This document shows positions 39,953-47,484 of a stretch of 64,000 nt of DNA, piece after piece. The translations under genes were made by a program, and so were the position numbers. This DNA comes from an uncultured Oscillospiraceae bacterium (GTDB lineage Bacteria; Bacillota; Clostridia; Oscillospirales; QAMX01): contig CAYWVF010000014.1 of assembly GCA_964461815.1 (NCBI GenBank), forward strand, positions 1,515 to 65,514, read 5' to 3'. The notes under the pieces were generated by a model. The model saw only the letters and a program-made list of their open reading frames with translations, had not been told where the DNA came from and did no database searches. Each line of letters starts with the position of its first letter. Positions within the stretch are counted from its first letter, which is position 1.

Positions 39953-40251
39953 TTTTGATCCTCCAATCGAAATTCTGAGATATTGTCTTGATATTATTAC
40001 GGCAGAGCAGTCTATCATCGTCGGTTTCGGTACTAGCTCCGAGCATATACGAAAACAGCGGCAATACGATGATCTGCTAAATATATTATATAATAATATA
40101 CATAATCTGTCAACGAATATGATCGTGGGAGCTAAAAAACCATGATGGGATGAAAAGAAGCAAAATTAACATAACACAAACATTTCAAAAAATTTTCGGA
40201 AACATCGTCGTGCTATTATACAGGTACACAATTCGTAAAGGAGAAAATAGA

Positions 40252-40614
40252 ATGAAAAACGAACAGGAATATTTGGTTGAAAAGATCCGCAGTCGATATA
40301 CAGAGAAAAAGCGCATAGAGCTTGATGAATTAAAAGCACTTGATAAAAAGGTAAATACTCCTGCAAATGTATTTGCATATGCCTTTGGTACACTGTCTGC
40401 ACTTGTTATGGGCAGTGGAATGAGCCTTGTTATGACGGATATAGGACAGAAAATAGGTGTTACAAACTCCGATCTTGTAGGTATCGTTATCGGGGTCATC
40501 GGAATGGCGATGGCTATCGCAAACTACCGTATTTATAAATACATTATCGGTAGCAGACGTAGGAAATATGCAAAGGAGATCATTTCACTCAGTGACAGGA
40601 TCATCGGCGCATAA
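40252..40614 (+). CDS. Small 2-TM membrane protein, paralog A (uncharacterised family)
   Basis: 120 aa. AAAGGAGAAAAT ribosome-binding site. N-terminal amphipathic helix, two Gly-rich TM helices, basic C-terminal helix. Paralogous to the product of 43344..43730. Confidence 0.55.
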   Translation: MKNEQEYLVEKIRSRYTEKKRIELDELKALDKKVNTPANVFAYAFGTLSALVMGSGMSLVMTDIGQKIGVTNSDLVGIVIGVIGMAMAIANYRIYKYIIGSRRRKYAKEIISLSDRIIGA

Positions 40615-40722
40615 ATGCGCCAGCACATAAATGCACCTGTGTATAAATTCACCACAGTCAAACAAAACATTAACATTTATATGATAAAATAACGATCAAT
40701 GATGATACTATGGAGGTACGAT

Positions 40723-41394
40723 GTGTTTCGAATATTGGTCGTAGAAGATGATAAGGAGCTTAATCGGACGGTCTGCTCATTCCTGAACGGCAGAGGCTAT
40801 GAGACGGTCGGGTGCCTGAATGCAAATGAAGCGTATGATGCGATATACAGTAGCATGTTTGATATTATCATATCCGATGTCATGATGCCGGGGACGGACG
40901 GTTTTGAATTTGCTGAAAATATACGTGATATCAATAAGAATATCCCTATTATTTTTATGACTGCAAGGGACGATATTGCATCGAAGCAGCGAGGCTTTCA
41001 TGCCGGAGCAGATGACTATATGGTGAAGCCCATTGACTTGGATGAGCTGCTTTTACGAATAGGGGCACTGCTTAGAAGAGCCGGGATAGCAGCTGCACGA
41101 AAAATAGAGATCGGTAATTTTATTATGGATATGGATGAGCATACCGCTTACTTGGGAGATGAAGAGATAAGCCTGACAAACCGAGAGTTTTCGATTTTAT
41201 ATAAGCTTCTCAGCTACCCTAAAAAGACCTTTACACGTACTCAGCTAATGGATGAGTTTTGGGATGCCGATACAGAGACAGCACCGAGAGCGGTAGACGT
41301 TTATATGACAAAGCTGCGCTCAAAATTAGCAGACTGCGACGCATTTGAGATAAAAACCGTTCACGGCTTGGGCTATAAGGCGGTGGTAAAGTGA
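40723..41394 (+). CDS. OmpR-family response regulator
   Basis: Probable GTG start (VFRILVVEDD) 6 nt after GGAGG. Receiver domain and winged-helix domain. Confidence 0.85.
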   Translation: MFRILVVEDDKELNRTVCSFLNGRGYETVGCLNANEAYDAIYSSMFDIIISDVMMPGTDGFEFAENIRDINKNIPIIFMTARDDIASKQRGFHAGADDYMVKPIDLDELLLRIGALLRRAGIAAARKIEIGNFIMDMDEHTAYLGDEEISLTNREFSILYKLLSYPKKTFTRTQLMDEFWDADTETAPRAVDVYMTKLRSKLADCDAFEIKTVHGLGYKAVVK

Positions 41395-42470
41395 AAAGGA
41401 CTGCATATGGATATAGACTTTTAAGAGCTGTATATCGCTATCTGCTGTTTTTTATGCTTGTGGCGTTTGTAACGACATGCTGTATGGTACTGTTTGTCAC
41501 TACATTGACGGAAAGCGTGAATATTACGCTGAATGCCGAAAATTTGAATATGGCATCAAAGCTGACATTCGGAAATGTGATGCTGTTGAGTCTCTTGTTT
41601 ACTCTCATTGACAGTCTGCGCCGAAAATATACGGTGGATAAACCTGTAGAGCAGATCGTTGCAGGTGCCGAAAGAATAATGCAAGGTGATTTTTCGGTAC
41701 GTATCAAATCGAATAAGAGAATGGTGGCAGACGATACCTTTGATGAGATCATCGATTGCTTTGGCAGGATGGCACAGGAGCTTGGAAGTCTTGAAACGCT
41801 CAGAACTGATTTTATTGCAAATGTATCGCACGAAATGAAAACTCCGCTTGCGATCATGCAAAACTACGGAACTCTTTTGCAGGCTGAGAAGCTGTCGGAT
41901 GAAAAAAGAATAGAATACGCAAAGGGAATTACGGATGCATCTCGCAGGATGACGGATATGATAACCAATATACTAAAGCTGAGCAGACTTGAAAATCAGC
42001 AGATATATCCGCAGGTGACACAGTTTGATCTGGGCGAGCAGCTGTGTGAGTGCTTGCTGCAATATGAAAATATATGGGAAAGAGAAAAAATAGAGATCGA
42101 TACGGACATAGCTGAGGCTGTTTCGATCAGAGCCGACAGTGAGCTTCTGAGTCTCGTGTGGAATAATCTGCTTTCAAACGCATTTAAATTTACACCCGAG
42201 GGGGGAGCTGTTTCACTGAGCCTTACAGCCGATGAAGCTTACGCCGTGATCAAGGTCAAGGATACAGGCTGTGGTATGAGCGCCGATGTCGGAGCACATA
42301 TATTTGAAAAGTTCTACCAGGGAGATACATCCCACGCTATGCAGGGAAACGGTCTGGGACTGGCGCTTGTGAAGCGTGTTGTAGATATAATGCATGGCGA
42401 AATATCAGTTGAAAGCACGGTAGGCGAGGGAAGTTTATTTACCGTGAAGATACCGAGGTCACAGATATGA
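41391..42470 (+). CDS. Sensor histidine kinase, intramembrane-sensing type (2 TM, minimal extracellular loop, HAMP, HisKA, HATPase)
   Basis: H-box NVSHEMKTPLA. N, G1 and G2 boxes present. Two N-terminal TM helices separated by about 20 aa. ATGA overlap with the regulator gene. Confidence 0.85.
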   Translation: MKRTAYGYRLLRAVYRYLLFFMLVAFVTTCCMVLFVTTLTESVNITLNAENLNMASKLTFGNVMLLSLLFTLIDSLRRKYTVDKPVEQIVAGAERIMQGDFSVRIKSNKRMVADDTFDEIIDCFGRMAQELGSLETLRTDFIANVSHEMKTPLAIMQNYGTLLQAEKLSDEKRIEYAKGITDASRRMTDMITNILKLSRLENQQIYPQVTQFDLGEQLCECLLQYENIWEREKIEIDTDIAEAVSIRADSELLSLVWNNLLSNAFKFTPEGGAVSLSLTADEAYAVIKVKDTGCGMSADVGAHIFEKFYQGDTSHAMQGNGLGLALVKRVVDIMHGEISVESTVGEGSLFTVKIPRSQI

Positions 42471-43354
42471 AATACAGTAAAGCTCGGAGCTGTCTTCTGT
42501 TTCCGCCTGTTGCCGTTTTAGTCTTACTGATACCGATCTCAGCGGCTGTGCTCGTGTATGCGATGATGTTTTTAGATGAAAGCGACCTGCTTCGTATCGG
42601 TGCATACATATTGTCATTTTACACTCTTGTGATCTTATGTGCTCGTGTGCCGCAGATGATCCGTTTTTTTAAGGAGCTGAAAAGAACGAACAGATACGCA
42701 AGGCTTTGGACGGAGGACGTGCGACTTCGAATGAAGGTAACACTTGCAGGCTGTGTCGTATGGAACGGCGGCTACGCTGTTATGCAGCTTGGACTCGGTA
42801 TTTATAACAGCTCGGCGTGGTTTTATTCACTTGCAGTATATTACTTCCTGCTTGCCACGATGCGCCTTTTTCTTGCATGTCATATATTTAAGTACAGACC
42901 CGGAGAAGAGATGCACCGTGAATTGAAATATTACAGAGCCTGCGGTCGGGTATTTTTAATAATGAATTTAACACTATCCTGTATGCTGCTTTATATAGTT
43001 CGAGGAGATCATATCGTGCATCACGGTGAGATCACGGCTATCGCGATCGCCACATACACCTTTACGTCACTTACGATGGCAACAATAAATGTGATACGCT
43101 ACCGAAGATTTAACAGCCCCGTATTTTCTGCATCGAAAGCCATATCACTGGCATCGGCTTGCGTATCGATAATGACATTGGAAAATATAATGTTGACTAC
43201 CTTTAGCGATAAAGAGATGACGGCACAGGCACAGAGAATGCTTAAGTCCTTGACGGGAGGTGCGATATCGCTGTTTATTGTTGCAATGGCGGTGTATATG
43301 ATCGTCAAAGCAAATAGAGAGATCAAATGCTTGGAGGATAAAAATGAAGAATAA
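42467..43354 (+). CDS. Polytopic membrane protein (about 7 TM), uncharacterised; translationally coupled to the histidine kinase
   Basis: 295 aa, hydrophobic throughout. ATGA overlap with the kinase stop. Confidence 0.6.
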   Translation: MKYSKARSCLLFPPVAVLVLLIPISAAVLVYAMMFLDESDLLRIGAYILSFYTLVILCARVPQMIRFFKELKRTNRYARLWTEDVRLRMKVTLAGCVVWNGGYAVMQLGLGIYNSSAWFYSLAVYYFLLATMRLFLACHIFKYRPGEEMHRELKYYRACGRVFLIMNLTLSCMLLYIVRGDHIVHHGEITAIAIATYTFTSLTMATINVIRYRRFNSPVFSASKAISLASACVSIMTLENIMLTTFSDKEMTAQAQRMLKSLTGGAISLFIVAMAVYMIVKANREIKCLEDKNEE

Positions 43355-43730
43355 TGATACATTTAAAATGACATACTCTGCAAAGCAGCAGGAAGAGATA
43401 AATAAAATTCGAGAGAAATATATTTCCAAAGCTCCGGATAATATGGAAAAACTGCGTGAGCTGGATAAAAGCGTAGGGAAAAAATCGTCGGCGATATCTA
43501 TTGCAGTCGGTGTTGTGGGTGCGATAATAATGGGCTTCGGCATGAGCCTTGTGATGTCCGATTTTGGGAAAATATTCGGCAATAATTCCTTTGCGATAGG
43601 TGTGGCTGTTGGCGTTATAGGAATTGCTATTTTAGGCTGTGCATATCCGTTGTATAGTCGTATGATAAAAAAGGAGCGGGAGAGGATCGCACCTGAAATC
43701 ATCAGATTGACGGATGAATTATTGAAATAG
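43344..43730 (+). CDS. Small 2-TM membrane protein, paralog B
   Basis: 128 aa. Same architecture as 40252..40614 and alignable to it (ELDK.V, GMSLVM.D.G, GVIG.A, EII.L.D). Overlaps the upstream gene by 11 nt. Confidence 0.6.
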   Translation: MKNNDTFKMTYSAKQQEEINKIREKYISKAPDNMEKLRELDKSVGKKSSAISIAVGVVGAIIMGFGMSLVMSDFGKIFGNNSFAIGVAVGVIGIAILGCAYPLYSRMIKKERERIAPEIIRLTDELLK

Positions 43731-43750: not shown

Positions 43751-43796
43751 AAAAAAAGAACGATATCCGACGATCAATATCGGATATCGTTCTTTT
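43751..43796. terminator. Bidirectional rho-independent terminator
   Basis: 14-bp stem AGAACGATATCCGA / TCGGATATCGTTCT flanked by an A-run and a T-run. Confidence 0.65.
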
Positions 43797-43861
43797 GCTC
43801 TGCCTCGGCAAATACACAAAACAGCTAGGCAGATATCTGTGGAAGGTTTTGATCTATATAA

Positions 43862-45883
43862 TCAGCGCATAGAGCGTCTGTTTTTGTAAAGTATGGCAAA
43901 TATGAGTGCAACGAGCATTATCACAAAGCAGATCGCAATTTCTATGAGATTTGCGTAGCTGTGCTGCGTGGAAGCTGATGAACTGCGTGTTTTTTCAACG
44001 TTCGGACGTTCAAAACGCTCGTTTTGAGATGACATAGCTTCTTTATCCATCATGCTTGGTGCTTCTTCATCATCAAACTGCGGTTCTCCGTCACGCTCAA
44101 AGGGCTGTGATATCATGTTTCCGTAGCCATCGGGTGGCTGCATGTCCATTTCACCCATATTATCCGGAGGCTTCATGTCACCCCTTCCGCTTTCGGGAAA
44201 ACCGTCCTGCGGCGGCATATTATTAAGGTCGAAAGCCTCCGGCATAGTAGGCATATCGGGAGGCTCGATACCTCCGCCGTTCTTCATGTCGTGCATGTTT
44301 CCGCCCATTTGACTTCCGAGAACGGAAAGCTCGATGTCCGATGCATCGATGAGCTTAGAGCTGTCCGCTCTTTGTCCCTCAGTCGTAGACGGTATCGAGC
44401 CGTCCAGCTGACCTCTGATGCTTTCGGCACGCATGAGTATCAGCTCGTAGAATTGCTCTGCTGCCGTAAGATACTCATCGTAGGTGTAGAACGAGGTCGG
44501 ATCGGATGCAATGCGTTTGTCGAGCTTTTTACGGAGGCTGAGATAGGTCTGCTCAAATTCACCGCCGTAGATATAGCCCTCAACGAGCTGCTCATAATAC
44601 TCATGGTATTTTTCAAGATATTCATCGTTTTCAAGAAGCTTTGCGAATATGGGTCTGCTCTCAAGTGATACGCCTGAAACGGGTGTGTCTATCGGAAAAT
44701 TAACTACATCGGAGGCATTTCCGCTCTGAAAACCACCAAATGCCAGGTTGTAATCCCACGGTATAAGTGACAGCTTGCCGCCTGATTCACGAAGATAATA
44801 GTTGTGAGTCATATTGCCTGTAAGACTGTCGAGGTTGACGCTGAATGTGTGGACTGCGAGATATTTCAGCATAGCATCAACATCGAGATACTGTTCGATA
44901 TCGTTGCCTTCGGAGATGTTTTTCAGCGCAGCTATGACTCTCTCCTTGTCACTGTCGGAGACGTCACCGAGCTTCGAGCTTTCCCATATCGCAGAGTAGC
45001 TTTCGGGATCATCGTCGGAGTAGGCGAGATCTGAACCGTTGCCTCCCATACCTCCGAATGCACCACCCATTTTCATATTGCGCTTCCCCATATTTTCAAT
45101 GGCATCATCTATAGCTTCGTCTGATCCGTCTGTATGATCGGGAGCATTACCATCGAATGGATCGAAGTCTTCGAATGACATATCGGGCTTTTGAAATTTT
45201 TCAAGCTCCTCCTGCGAAAGACCGTCAAAGACGTCCTTGAAATTCTGCCCTCCGTCGCCCATTTCCATGCTGTCGGGCTTGTAAAGCATACCGTAATCGG
45301 TGCCGTAGTTACGTTCAATGAAGGCTTCCTCCACTGCTTCGAGTGCAAGATAAGTGCCCCACCGCTCACCGTTTATGCTTATATCGGCGTAAGAACACAG
45401 TGAAGCTGATGCTCCGAGATATTTATACATATCATAGACAAAGTATTCCTTCATCATTGTCGCATCGGACATGTTGTTGTTCAGTACGAGCTTGTCGAGC
45501 CCCCAGCAGCTTTGCGAGCTGTCGTAGTGGTCGAACTCTATCTTGAAGCTGTAGCGATCTGTAGTCACCATACTCAGACTCGTATTGCCCTTTGCACGTA
45601 TTCCGACGTTTGAGAAGGTCGTACCGTTTATAACTACATCACAAACGTAGTACTCCTCGTCCAGTGCATTGTTAAGAAGCTCCTGCCACTGAGAATCATC
45701 CATTATTACGTCTACGGTTATGACATCACCGCCGAAGAGCTTCTTTTCATATGCTTTTTGTGATGCGGAAGAATAGCTTTCCAGAGGAAGCAGCCCGGAG
45801 GCATAGGTGAAAAGAAATGTGAGGACTACGGTGACGGAAACCAGTGTTATGATCGCTCTGTCGAAATTTATTTTTCTTGTCAT
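43862..45883 (-). CDS. CotH-family (atypical kinase fold) protein with N- and C-terminal TM anchors and a Pro/Asp/Met/Gly-rich low-complexity region
   Basis: 673 aa. Central region (FSNVGIRAKGNTS...YSFKIEFD...MMKEYFVYDMYKYLG) matches the CotH family. N-terminal signal anchor. C-terminal hydrophobic helix followed by KNRRSMR. Confidence 0.75.
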   Translation of the reverse strand: MTRKINFDRAIITLVSVTVVLTFLFTYASGLLPLESYSSASQKAYEKKLFGGDVITVDVIMDDSQWQELLNNALDEEYYVCDVVINGTTFSNVGIRAKGNTSLSMVTTDRYSFKIEFDHYDSSQSCWGLDKLVLNNNMSDATMMKEYFVYDMYKYLGASASLCSYADISINGERWGTYLALEAVEEAFIERNYGTDYGMLYKPDSMEMGDGGQNFKDVFDGLSQEELEKFQKPDMSFEDFDPFDGNAPDHTDGSDEAIDDAIENMGKRNMKMGGAFGGMGGNGSDLAYSDDDPESYSAIWESSKLGDVSDSDKERVIAALKNISEGNDIEQYLDVDAMLKYLAVHTFSVNLDSLTGNMTHNYYLRESGGKLSLIPWDYNLAFGGFQSGNASDVVNFPIDTPVSGVSLESRPIFAKLLENDEYLEKYHEYYEQLVEGYIYGGEFEQTYLSLRKKLDKRIASDPTSFYTYDEYLTAAEQFYELILMRAESIRGQLDGSIPSTTEGQRADSSKLIDASDIELSVLGSQMGGNMHDMKNGGGIEPPDMPTMPEAFDLNNMPPQDGFPESGRGDMKPPDNMGEMDMQPPDGYGNMISQPFERDGEPQFDDEEAPSMMDKEAMSSQNERFERPNVEKTRSSSASTQHSYANLIEIAICFVIMLVALIFAILYKNRRSMR

Positions 45884-45892
45884 GGCAATGCT

Positions 45893-46564
45893 TTATGACA
45901 TGTAATCGCCGTTGTAGCTGACGAGTACTGCGCTTGTTACACCGTCAAGTGCAGATAGCTTGTTTATAAATTCCGTAGACATTTCACGAAGCCTTACCTC
46001 ATATGTGATCTCGGAATTGCCGGCTGTAATGCTCTTGGATTTAACACTGAAACGCTTTGAACCGCCGCGGATGATCGATACGATATTATCCTCTGCCTTA
46101 GGAGCGTCGAATTTTACTACGAGTATATAAGGACTGTCACCCGACTTTACCTTTGCAAACAGTGTGATAATGATGCCGACGATAACAGCTCCGAATACTG
46201 CGAGCGGTACAAGTCCCGCACCGAGGATTATGCCCTCTGCGATCGACCAAAACAGGAACGCTATGTCAAGCGGCTCCTTGATCGCCGTTCTGAATCTGAC
46301 GATGGACAATGCACCGACCATACCGAGGGAAAGAACTACGTTAGATGTTACGGCAAGTATTACAAGCGTTGTAATAAGCGTAAGTGCTGTGAGCGTGACT
46401 CCAAAGCTCTGGGAATACATAACACCGCTGAAGGTACGCTTATATATATAGTATATAAACAGTCCGATGACTAGCGCAAGCGCAAGTGCGATAACAGTGT
46501 CCAAAAGTGAAAATGATGTGACATTTTCCAGAAAGCTTGATTTAAAGATGTCGTTGAAGGTCAT
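45893..46564 (-). CDS. DUF4956-like membrane protein
   Basis: 223 aa. Four TM helices plus a C-terminal soluble domain. Gene lies 9 nt from the CotH start. Confidence 0.65.
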   Translation of the reverse strand: MTFNDIFKSSFLENVTSFSLLDTVIALALALVIGLFIYYIYKRTFSGVMYSQSFGVTLTALTLITTLVILAVTSNVVLSLGMVGALSIVRFRTAIKEPLDIAFLFWSIAEGIILGAGLVPLAVFGAVIVGIIITLFAKVKSGDSPYILVVKFDAPKAEDNIVSIIRGGSKRFSVKSKSITAGNSEITYEVRLREMSTEFINKLSALDGVTSAVLVSYNGDYMS

Positions 46565-46595
46565 GTTGTTTTACTCCTTAATATTTATTATATTC

Positions 46596-47279
46596 TTATT
46601 CGAACATACGGCATTCCGCGTATTTTGAAAACGCATTCGTTCGTCTGCCGGCACCGGCGGCACAGGCTATCACCTCCGGCAGAAATTCATCGTATTTGAT
46701 CTCAAGTATGATCTTATCCGAGGATGCTGCCGGCAACAGCTTCGAGGAGTCGAAAAGATCCGTAGAACGGATACCGGTACGAAGCTCCGAATCGAAGGTT
46801 ATCCTTATATGCCCCGGCTCGTAGATATACGGCTCACGTGTATAAGCGACAAGTACCTTGGGCTTAAGCTGATCGTTACGCATTCTTATGTACAGCTCCA
46901 GCTTCAAGCTGTCGTCGGACTCGGAAAGAAACTCATAATCACCTCGTATGATCGACTCGCATTCGCTTCGTGTAAGAGGTGCGGAGCATTTCAGACAAAG
47001 CCCGTTGATCTTCGATTTCTTTTCAAGTGAGATAAATGAATCGTCGTCATTGTACATTCGTATACGGAATTTATCACGCTTGTTTACTCCGTCTATCTTG
47101 TCTCGCAGTGCAGAATCGTTGATGTCATCAAAGTAAATACTCTTGATAAAGTATGTGCCACAGTCCGAGGTATGAGAATCAAGCTGCATGATCGGCTTGA
47201 TCTGTGAGCGTATCGTAAGATAGTCGCTGTAGCTTATCATGTATTTAAACTCGTGACGGAACTTATTTGTTGTGTGCAT
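46596..47279 (-). CDS. VTC-domain (CYTH-like triphosphate tunnel / polyphosphate polymerase-like) protein
   Basis: 227 aa. HEFKYMIS start and alternating charged beta-strand pattern typical of VTC/CYTH domains. First gene of the minus-strand trio. Confidence 0.7.
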   Translation of the reverse strand: MHTTNKFRHEFKYMISYSDYLTIRSQIKPIMQLDSHTSDCGTYFIKSIYFDDINDSALRDKIDGVNKRDKFRIRMYNDDDSFISLEKKSKINGLCLKCSAPLTRSECESIIRGDYEFLSESDDSLKLELYIRMRNDQLKPKVLVAYTREPYIYEPGHIRITFDSELRTGIRSTDLFDSSKLLPAASSDKIILEIKYDEFLPEVIACAAGAGRRTNAFSKYAECRMFE

Positions 47280-47407
47280 TTGATATGTTCACCCTTGCTG
47301 TTTGATAAATCGAGTATACATATTTATGCTGTATTTGAAATGGTCTTAAAATGAATTTTGTGTGATGAAGAACTGAAAAAATAAAATAATAAAAATATCA
47401 AAAAATG

Positions 47408-47436
47408 CTTGCAAAATACGTTATGTTGTGATATTA
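47408..47436 (+). promoter_or_regulatory. Putative promoter for secG
   Basis: TTGCAA, 17-nt spacer, TATTAT. Confidence 0.4.
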
Positions 47437-47484
47437 TAATAAGTACTTGTGAATGTATATGTAAAAGAAGAGAGGAATTTTAAG

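Follow-up and report, generated by a model that had tools for sequence, protein, structure and literature searches.

In prokaryotes, PPK1 and PPK2 are the enzymes credited with making polyphosphate. In eukaryotes, the VTC complex, made up of Vtc4 with Vtc1/2/3, is a vacuolar polymerase-translocase whose catalytic tunnel is docked on a membrane channel. In bacteria, a set of cotH, polyphosphate-polymerase and DUF4956 genes was described as accessory genes contiguous with Gram-positive pel operons (Whitfield et al. 2019), and this pel-contiguous trio is known in streptococci, clostridia and bifidobacteria. A 2024 preprint on the S. intermedius genes SIR_1594/1593/1592 noted intact catalytic residues and predicted a secreted CotH protein, a cytoplasmic VTC protein and a DUF4956 protein with multiple transmembrane segments and an ACT domain; its authors did not find the combination outside pel operons. 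In C. perfringens, NELoc-2 groups VTC-domain and CotH genes with glycosyltransferase and HEAT-repeat genes, with no mention of DUF4956. Here, we analysed a 64,000-nucleotide stretch of an uncultured Oscillospiraceae genome (contig CAYWVF010000014.1, hereafter called the window), which harbours a trio of genes of the same three families:

46596-47279, minus strand: gene 1, VTC-domain protein of 227 residues, soluble and basic; candidate polyphosphate polymerase
45893-46564, minus strand: gene 2, DUF4956 membrane protein of 223 residues; five helices are predicted, and the C-terminal domain is ACT-like and cytosolic
43862-45883, minus strand: gene 3, CotH-family kinase-like protein of 673 residues (Pfam, AlphaFold2 model, Foldseek, hydropathy)

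A preliminary description of this locus had recognized three closely packed minus-strand genes of the VTC, DUF4956 and CotH families, followed by a strong bidirectional terminator. The open reading frames (ORFs) are separated by 31 nt (genes 1 and 2) and 9 nt (genes 2 and 3), the hairpin is present at 43753-43797, and the family assignments are borne out by Pfam matches of 124.5, 42.9 and 185.8 bits, respectively, all of which exceed the curated cutoffs. The same description called the trio uncharacterized. This stands as regards biochemistry, of which we found none in the literature; the trio itself had already been described in 2019 and 2024 as a pel accessory set.

The locus shares with that set the same three, contiguous families. 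However, the gene order is VTC-DUF4956-CotH here and CotH-VTC-DUF4956 there, the window trio is not located directly downstream of pelDEA(DA)FG, and its CotH protein is additionally anchored at the C terminus and lacks an FN3 domain. What it has in common with the eukaryotic VTC complex is a VTC tunnel domain with invariant counterparts of triphosphate- and metal-binding residues, encoded together with an integral membrane partner. In contrast with that complex, gene 1 has neither an SPX domain nor a fused DUF202 transmembrane domain, Vtc1/2/3 subunits are absent, an unrelated protein, MgtC-like and carrying an ACT-like domain, takes the place of the membrane partner, and the proposed target of the product is the cell exterior rather than the vacuole.

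A core pair with an exchangeable third gene

A scan of one genome per species yielded at least 597 relatives of gene 1, and we analysed the best 80 loci. Exact look-ups retrieved no contig for the CotH protein of the window and only a 1.5-kb Logan contig for its VTC protein. The family is large, with at least 8,490 clusters at 50% identity using an E-value threshold of 1e-3, at least 4,212 at 1e-10 and at least 1,198 at 1e-30. The hosts of the 80 loci include Lachnospiraceae, Oscillospiraceae, Clostridium, Acetobacterium, Ruminiclostridium, Coriobacteriaceae, Alloprevotella and Leptolinea, as well as two methanogen genera, Methanimicrococcus (whose complete genome carries two copies) and Methanocorpusculum.

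The VTC gene is directly followed by the DUF4956 gene in 78 of the 80 loci, and the order VTC, DUF4956 and a third gene, coding for CotH or an alternative extracellular protein, is found in 72-73 of them, a degree of synteny well above what chance would produce. The pair is accompanied by CotH in 50 loci (51 with the archaeal locus L005) and by a Cthe_2159-type protein in 22; it stands alone in 3 loci, 3 others lie at contig ends, and a single VTC gene lacks a DUF4956 neighbour. An initial clustering had placed CotH in 71 loci, a count that we rejected because a minority of these proteins entirely lack the catalytic columns and had been grouped through shared low-complexity and transmembrane regions. 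Third-gene products without CotH columns are Cthe_2159 beta-helix proteins (Pfam scores of 176-238 bits), as exemplified by loci L011 (11366-13348), L012 (11408-13630), L015 (11461-13689), L026 (11378-13711) and L036 (11390-13105). Thus, the synteny of the trio across taxa, named as a check in the preliminary description, holds for its order and for the VTC/DUF4956 pair, but CotH is not obligate.

The core pairs are hardly more similar within a third-gene type (61% identity) than between types (59%), and the type of third gene is the same as that of the nearest neighbour in 61 of 63 cases. Since CotH is replaced by Cthe_2159 in 22 of the 80 loci next to a near-identical pair, the pair rather than the trio is the core. 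Sequence comparison thus makes VTC plus DUF4956 the invariant unit, and the third gene is an exchangeable one, whose product is predicted to be a membrane-tethered partner on the outside.

The two kinds of third protein have a similar build, with an N-terminal anchor, a globular acidic ectodomain, a low-complexity linker and often a C-terminal anchor; a hydrophobic segment is present at the N terminus of 57 and at the C terminus of 46 of the 61 related third-gene products. Their ectodomains are extremely acidic (isoelectric point (pI) of approximately 4.1), with median net charges of -55 for CotH and -78 for Cthe_2159. The Cthe_2159 variant differs in that its third protein is a beta-helix, a carbohydrate- and polyanion-binding fold devoid of kinase motifs. 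Cthe_2159 proteins bind the linear polyanion polygalacturonate.

The archaeal copies, in L005 (the complete genome of Methanimicrococcus stummii) and in L031 and L042 (Methanocorpusculum), are approximately 50% identical to the clostridial genes, which suggests that the cassette was transferred between domains and functions in an S-layer envelope. M. stummii harbours two copies side by side. Locus L010 (6568-12356) is the only one in which DUF4956 does not follow VTC; three ORFs of 573-616 residues without Pfam matches are found instead. In another case, P0481 (371 residues), a single ORF comprises the first 167 VTC residues together with a portion of DUF4956 and a Cthe_2159-type tail. We set it aside as a functional fusion, as it is a chimeric fragment that probably stems from a decayed locus or an assembly artefact.

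Stand-alone copies outside pel operons are common, in contradiction with the 2024 preprint, and the cassette is independent of pel. It is probably a self-contained, horizontally mobile operon, and its spread to archaea and diderm bacteria is reported here for the first time. While the cassette had been annotated and noticed before, its independence from pel, the identification of the pair as its core and the exchangeable nature of the third gene are new.

The VTC-domain protein

Gene 1 matches the Pfam VTC family (PF09359) with a score of 124.5 bits (cutoff 23; E 6.5e-36) over positions 1-230 of the 235-position model. The protein consists of the VTC domain alone and has no hydrophobic segment according to hydropathy analysis, and the family is basic (median pI of 9.0). 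Single-sequence searches of the PDB with genes 1 and 2 gave nothing meaningful. A profile of 20 gene 1 homologues matches Vtc4 (3G3Q, E 0.0016) and Vtc2 (3G3O, E 0.002).

Nine residues of yeast Vtc4, namely K200, R264, R266, K281, Y359, R361, E426, S457 and K458, are needed for Mn-triphosphate binding and polyphosphate synthesis. In the profile alignment (3G3Q chain offset of 185), R72, R74, K88, Y146 and R148 of gene 1 align with R264, R266, K281, Y359 and R361, respectively, and all five are invariant across the 20 homologues. Counterparts of the other four were assigned by motif and spacing only, because no tool aligned them to Vtc4: K12, in an RHExKY motif, for K200, E193 (in E193-x-K195) for E426, and S218-K219 for S457-K458. 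K12, E193, S218 and K219 are also invariant in the homologue alignment. It is K458 that sets active Vtc4 apart from the inactive Vtc2/3, and an invariant Lys (K219) at its presumed position speaks for an active gene 1 enzyme. We consider gene 1 a candidate polyphosphate polymerase, an activity that we infer from these residues.

Some bacterial VTC proteins (P0406, P0416, P0429 and P0469) carry an N-terminal extension of 140-395 residues, rich in Lys and Arg and apparently disordered, in which no Pfam match was found. Such an extension represents a polycationic tail on a putative polyanion synthase.

The DUF4956 membrane protein

Gene 2 matches Pfam DUF4956 with 42.9 bits (E 5.7e-11) and is hydrophobic over residues 14-142. 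Four transmembrane helices and a soluble C-terminal domain had been proposed initially; in the AlphaFold2 model (mean predicted local distance difference test score (pLDDT) of 72), the soluble domain is retained and five membrane helices are found. The C-terminal domain (residues ~145-216) has an ACT-like beta-alpha-beta-beta-alpha-beta topology. The charge distribution predicts that loops 42-52 and 88-100 and the ACT-like domain are in the cytoplasm, and the invariant R90, R92 and K96 are placed at the predicted cytosolic face.

Homologues of gene 2 are 65-70% identical and usually exactly 223 residues long, with an almost entirely invariant stretch from S74 to W106. DUF4956 is the most constrained member of the cassette, compared with identities of approximately 50-55% for VTC and 35-50% for CotH.

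The protein displays an MgtC-type architecture, with a helical membrane domain followed by a C-terminal ACT-like domain, and is remotely homologous to that family: hhalign aligns it with E. coli YhiD over residues 74-211 (E 1.4e-4). It nevertheless scores below the thresholds of the MgtC/SapB/YhiD families (12.6 versus 31.4 bits for Pfam MgtC, and 26.1 versus 214 bits for NCBIfam PRK09977), and it differs from them by a distinct invariant motif, SNVVLSLGMVGALSIVRFRTAIKEP, and by its constant pairing with a VTC gene. On these profile comparisons, DUF4956, with its ACT-like C-terminal domain, is distantly related to MgtC/YhiD. The expression literature that mentions DUF4956 provided no usable functional signal.

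The CotH-family protein

Gene 3 matches Pfam CotH with 185.8 bits (E 1.8e-54), and the top Foldseek matches of its AlphaFold2 model are the B. cereus CotH structures 5JD9/5JDA (E 6e-16, target TM-score of 0.79). The protein comprises an N-terminal anchor, a CotH domain (residues ~41-526) interrupted at 205-284 by a disordered acidic insert, a disordered linker of approximately 110 residues rich in Pro, Met, Asp and Gly (527-640) and a C-terminal anchor. The codons of its anchors and active site are located as follows:

45782-45865, minus strand: N-terminal membrane anchor, residues 7-34 (hydropathy; helix 2-27 in the model; R3, K4 and R9)
44753-44830, minus strand: active site D352...H360-N361...W376-D377 (alignment to B. 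cereus CotH)
43877-43963, minus strand: C-terminal membrane anchor, residues 641-669 (hydropathy peak of 3.09; helix 640-672 in the model, followed by KNRRSMR)

Because basic residues precede the first helix (R3/K4/R9) and follow the last one (KNRRSMR), the CotH domain is predicted to be outside the cell. Hydropathy, flanking charges and model helices thus agree with the double anchoring and outward orientation proposed in the preliminary description, in which the state of the active site had been left to be checked.

D352, N361 and D377 of gene 3 align with D224, N229 and D247 of B. cereus CotH. D224 and D247 correspond to the catalytic D228 and the metal-binding D251 of B. subtilis CotH, with the same spacing of 23 residues, and mutation of D228 or D251 inactivates CotH. 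The three residues are invariant in 41 gene 3 homologues; within the related loci, all 45 CotH-type third genes retain D352 and D377, and at least 44 retain N361. Given the conservation of the catalytic Asp/Asn/Asp set and the match to the CotH kinase fold, gene 3 should be an enzyme rather than a pseudo-enzyme. The alignment and the model indicate that its CotH domain is catalytically intact, and kinase activity is predicted.

With the Bacillus spore-coat kinase, gene 3 shares the fold, both catalytic Asp residues and the Asn. It differs by its low identity (15%), by being anchored at both ends and outward-facing, and by the disordered acidic insert of ~70-80 residues and the 110-residue low-complexity linker, which have no equivalents in the spore-coat enzyme. 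No sporulation genes and no genes for CotB/CotG-type substrates were found among the window neighbours, in line with the non-sporulation context noted earlier, and the presence of the cassette in non-sporulating archaea and Bacteroidota does not fit a spore-coat localization.

Two large proteins, P0248 (1057 residues) and P0249 (973 residues), were considered as possible fusions of CotH with VTC or DUF4956. This was ruled out, as they are tandem CotH-CotH proteins. Their first domain lacks the catalytic residues (NLNS/WSYH or NFNS/CNYN in place of NLDS/WDYN), which are retained in the second, and they look like pseudokinase-kinase pairs in sequence.

Expression signals and genetic environment

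Signals identified around the trio and a nearby regulatory system are as follows:

47280-47448, minus strand: AT-rich divergent intergenic region between the trio and secG, presumed to contain the promoter and 5' untranslated region of the trio
46574-46579, minus strand: Shine-Dalgarno sequence AAGGAG of gene 2, 9 nt before the DUF4956 ATG, read from the sequence
43753-43797, both strands: bidirectional intrinsic terminator with an 18-bp perfect stem, a 7-nt loop and U7 on the minus strand
40699-42470, plus strand: OmpR-type response regulator and histidine kinase (Pfam Response_reg+Trans_reg_C and HisKA+HATPase_c), convergent with and 1.4 kb downstream of the trio

Promoter-like hexamers, which are consensus matches only, are present on the minus strand at 47415-47386 and 47465-47436. 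The terminator hairpin is flanked by an A-run and, at its opposite end, a T-run, folds with a z-score of -4.05 relative to shuffled sequences and is common to the trio and a convergent plus-strand operon; a simple terminator scan did not list it. Inspection of the sequence upstream of the CotH ATG revealed no Shine-Dalgarno sequence, and translation of CotH is therefore likely to be coupled to that of gene 2. Co-transcription of the trio is likely from its layout. No riboswitch was found upstream of the trio in the window (Rfam, nothing at E<=1) or in seven related loci. The sole Rfam match above threshold in the entire window is an S10-Clostridia ribosomal protein leader (RF03136, 47916-48000, plus strand, 42.1 bits) ahead of the S10 operon. 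This leader and the closest homologues assign the window to the Clostridia.

In the window, the trio has housekeeping genes around it; its neighbours comprise secG, IleRS and DUF554 together with the S10 operon and a two-component system. The proximity of secG and of the ribosomal genes had been taken to indicate a constitutive function. This finds no support, as the flanking genes differ in almost every locus and two-component systems are present in approximately one-third of them. In the latter loci, an OmpR-type regulator and a histidine kinase of ~400-420 residues adjoin the cassette in either orientation, and these kinases can be aligned with one another from end to end. Together with a few GGDEF-EAL genes, the adjacent systems point to regulated expression, and the cassette appears to be often under two-component control, which had not been described before.

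Two genes for small membrane proteins lie between the trio and the two-component system of the window. The histidine kinase of this system is shorter than the cassette-linked ones and only ~25-39% identical to them, that of L058 being the closest, and orthology with the trio-adjacent systems could not be shown by sequence comparison. It is possibly the regulator of the trio, but its membership in the cassette is uncertain. The convergent operon to which it belongs (40150-43730, plus strand) encodes the response regulator, the 359-residue histidine kinase, a 295-residue protein with multiple transmembrane segments and a 128-residue protein with two such segments, with overlaps of 4-11 nt. The 128-residue protein is a paralogue of the 154-residue product of the ORF at 40150-40614, just upstream of the regulator gene. 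No Pfam family was found for the 128-, 154- or 295-residue proteins.

Among the related loci, 125 non-regulatory upstream ORFs harbour 167 Pfam families, none of which occurs in more than 3, and no polysaccharide-synthesis family is recurrent among them. We found no pel, DUF4832 or other polysaccharide gene near the window trio, with Pel-specific models run on part of the neighbours. In Ruminiclostridium papyrosolvens (L017, 5925-15151) and two related metagenome-assembled genomes (L024 and L030), the cassette is framed by phosphate- and Mg2+-related genes, in the order response regulator, histidine kinase, CBS/DRTGG family II pyrophosphatase, VTC, DUF4956, CotH and CNNM/CorC transporter. Genes for P-type ATPases and Na+/H+ exchangers are other occasional neighbours. 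GGDEF-EAL genes, related to cyclic di-GMP turnover, are found directly downstream of the cassette in four loci, L022 (9913-11868), L034, L053 (13765-16893) and L059 (4950-6659), echoing the diguanylate cyclase/phosphodiesterase reported beside the trio in bifidobacteria.

Two plasmid-borne copies are more divergent (approximately 40% identity). On pNP95 of Pseudobutyrivibrio xylanivorans (L082, 6527-9666), the genes are ordered CotH-VTC-DUF4956 inside an exopolysaccharide cluster with glycosyltransferase and pyruvyl-transferase genes. On a Planococcus maritimus plasmid (L083, 5389-8245), the cassette precedes HEAT-repeat and glycosyltransferase genes, which recalls C. perfringens NELoc-2.

Proposed function and alternatives

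By analogy with the eukaryotic complex, a VTC-like synthase and its membrane partner might deliver polyphosphate outward to the CotH enzyme, a reading that we favour while considering it possible rather than probable. Gene 1 would build polyphosphate from cytosolic ATP on the inner side of the membrane. The gene 2 protein, as an oligomer, would anchor gene 1, gate the process through its cytosolic ACT-like domain and pass the polyphosphate chain, or the phosphoryl groups that it carries, across to the outer face. There, CotH would use the polymer as a phosphoryl donor, or would modify and tether it, which might allow phosphorylation of surface proteins, of glycans or of the polymer in a compartment devoid of ATP. 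In the Cthe_2159 variant, the polyanion-binding beta-helix would take the role of CotH. We infer the physical VTC-DUF4956 complex, the translocation step and both the donor and the substrate of CotH. The membrane complex envisaged in the preliminary description, coupling a phosphoanhydride polymer to an outside kinase, seems a reasonable possibility. A fuller version of this scenario, in which VTC and DUF4956 would form a prokaryotic polyphosphate synthase-translocase, a third bacterial and archaeal route besides PPK1 and PPK2 that extrudes the polymer to the cell surface, and the CotH ectodomain would use that polymer as phosphoryl donor in place of ATP, or cap and tether it, appears doubtful to us.

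As judged from the sequences, the proposal draws its strongest support from the near-obligate pairing of VTC with DUF4956, the constraint on DUF4956, the invariant catalytic sets of both enzymes and the predicted extracytoplasmic location of the third protein with either fold. A cytosolic, ATP-dependent enzyme linked via a membrane protein to an outside protein suggests that the output is on the outside. More distant versions of the cassette are located beside exopolysaccharide, pel and cyclic di-GMP genes, which fits a surface or matrix product. The binding of a linear polyanion by Cthe_2159 proteins and the reported PPK-independent extracellular polyphosphate of Gram-positive bacteria also count in its favour.

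Several observations weigh against outward delivery. No similarity was detected between DUF4956 and the DUF202 channel subunits of the eukaryotic VTC complex, and the moderately confident monomer model (pLDDT 72) shows no pore. The MgtC/YhiD relatives are known as regulators, not channels. To our knowledge, the CotH kinases characterized so far use ATP. Both kinds of ectodomain are so acidic that repulsion of polyphosphate would be expected in the absence of bridging divalent cations. Sub-alignments of the VTC family covering the N-terminal 80 or the C-terminal 100 residues gave no match to Vtc4. Our literature search turned up no member of the cassette that had been tested biochemically or genetically, and the S. 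intermedius authors propose that polyphosphate stays in the cytoplasm. Finally, a 2026 preprint reports abundant extracellular polyphosphate in the Gram-positive B. cereus group that is PPK1/PPK2-independent and resistant to exopolyphosphatase, but this group is reported to lack a VTC4 homologue.

The operon might instead combine two functions, with genes 1 and 2 making and regulating cytoplasmic polyphosphate, DUF4956 serving as an anchor or as an ACT-domain ligand sensor instead of a conduit, and CotH acting as an independent ecto-kinase that targets surface or matrix proteins using scavenged extracellular ATP. We deem this unlikely, with a modest chance of being right. It would agree with the regulatory nature of MgtC-family proteins, whose ACT-like domain is found in DUF4956, with the use of ATP by known CotH kinases (5JDA carries Mg2+/AMP), with the replacement of CotH by a non-kinase protein, with the cytoplasmic polyphosphate favoured in the S. 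intermedius preprint and with the long, basic, disordered N-terminal tails of some VTC homologues, which would bind a cytosolic polyanion. However, the pairing of VTC and DUF4956 (78 of 80) and the near-constant presence of a tethered extracellular third protein would then be left unexplained, and bacteria already have PPK1 and PPK2 for cytosolic polyphosphate. Contiguity with pel operons in streptococci, clostridia and bifidobacteria would rather evoke an accessory module for exopolysaccharides or surface glycans, in which CotH or the beta-helix would bind and either phosphorylate or process a matrix polysaccharide such as Pel, while VTC and DUF4956 would supply or regulate phosphate chemistry. 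The pNP95 copy inside an exopolysaccharide cluster, the Planococcus copy and C. perfringens NELoc-2 beside glycosyltransferase and HEAT-repeat genes, the carbohydrate-binding, lyase-like fold of Cthe_2159 and the GGDEF-EAL genes downstream in 4 loci are in keeping with such a role. We nonetheless regard it as rather unlikely, with a small chance: no polysaccharide-synthesis family recurs among the best 80 loci, none flanks the window trio, whose stand-alone copy would have to target a polysaccharide with its genes at another genomic site, and the trio is also found in methanogenic archaea, whose envelopes are very different.

Many members of the triphosphate-tunnel superfamily are hydrolases, and gene 1 might be a triphosphate or polyphosphate hydrolase or sensor, the pair functioning in an MgtC-like manner in Mg2+, phosphate or ATP homeostasis and the acidic outside proteins acting as cation buffers. 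The distant relationship of DUF4956 to MgtC/YhiD would be explained in this way, as would the ectodomain pI of approximately 4.1, the family II pyrophosphatase and CNNM/CorC neighbours in L017, L024 and L030 and the P-type ATPases and Na+/H+ exchangers elsewhere. This explanation is improbable in our view, given that the match is specific to the VTC family, with K219 the invariant counterpart, by motif and spacing, of the Lys of active Vtc4, and that the ion-related neighbours occur in few loci only. As for a fortuitous adjacency of the three genes, or a lack of co-expression, the missing Shine-Dalgarno sequence before CotH would be compatible with it, but we give it virtually no credence, as the genes lie on one strand with gaps of 31 and 9 nt before a single terminator, and 72-73 of 80 loci, spanning phyla and domains, preserve their order.

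Significance

The cassette is an obvious candidate for a non-PPK polyphosphate route in many gut and rumen anaerobes and in some methanogens, and it makes the open question of non-PPK extracellular polyphosphate directly testable. Its independence from pel, its core pair and its exchangeable third gene alter which genes should be studied together. It would also offer a concrete model for the fuelling of an extracellular kinase. Should the fuller synthase-translocase scenario be true, it would explain how a kinase works outside the cell and where PPK-independent extracellular polyphosphate comes from.

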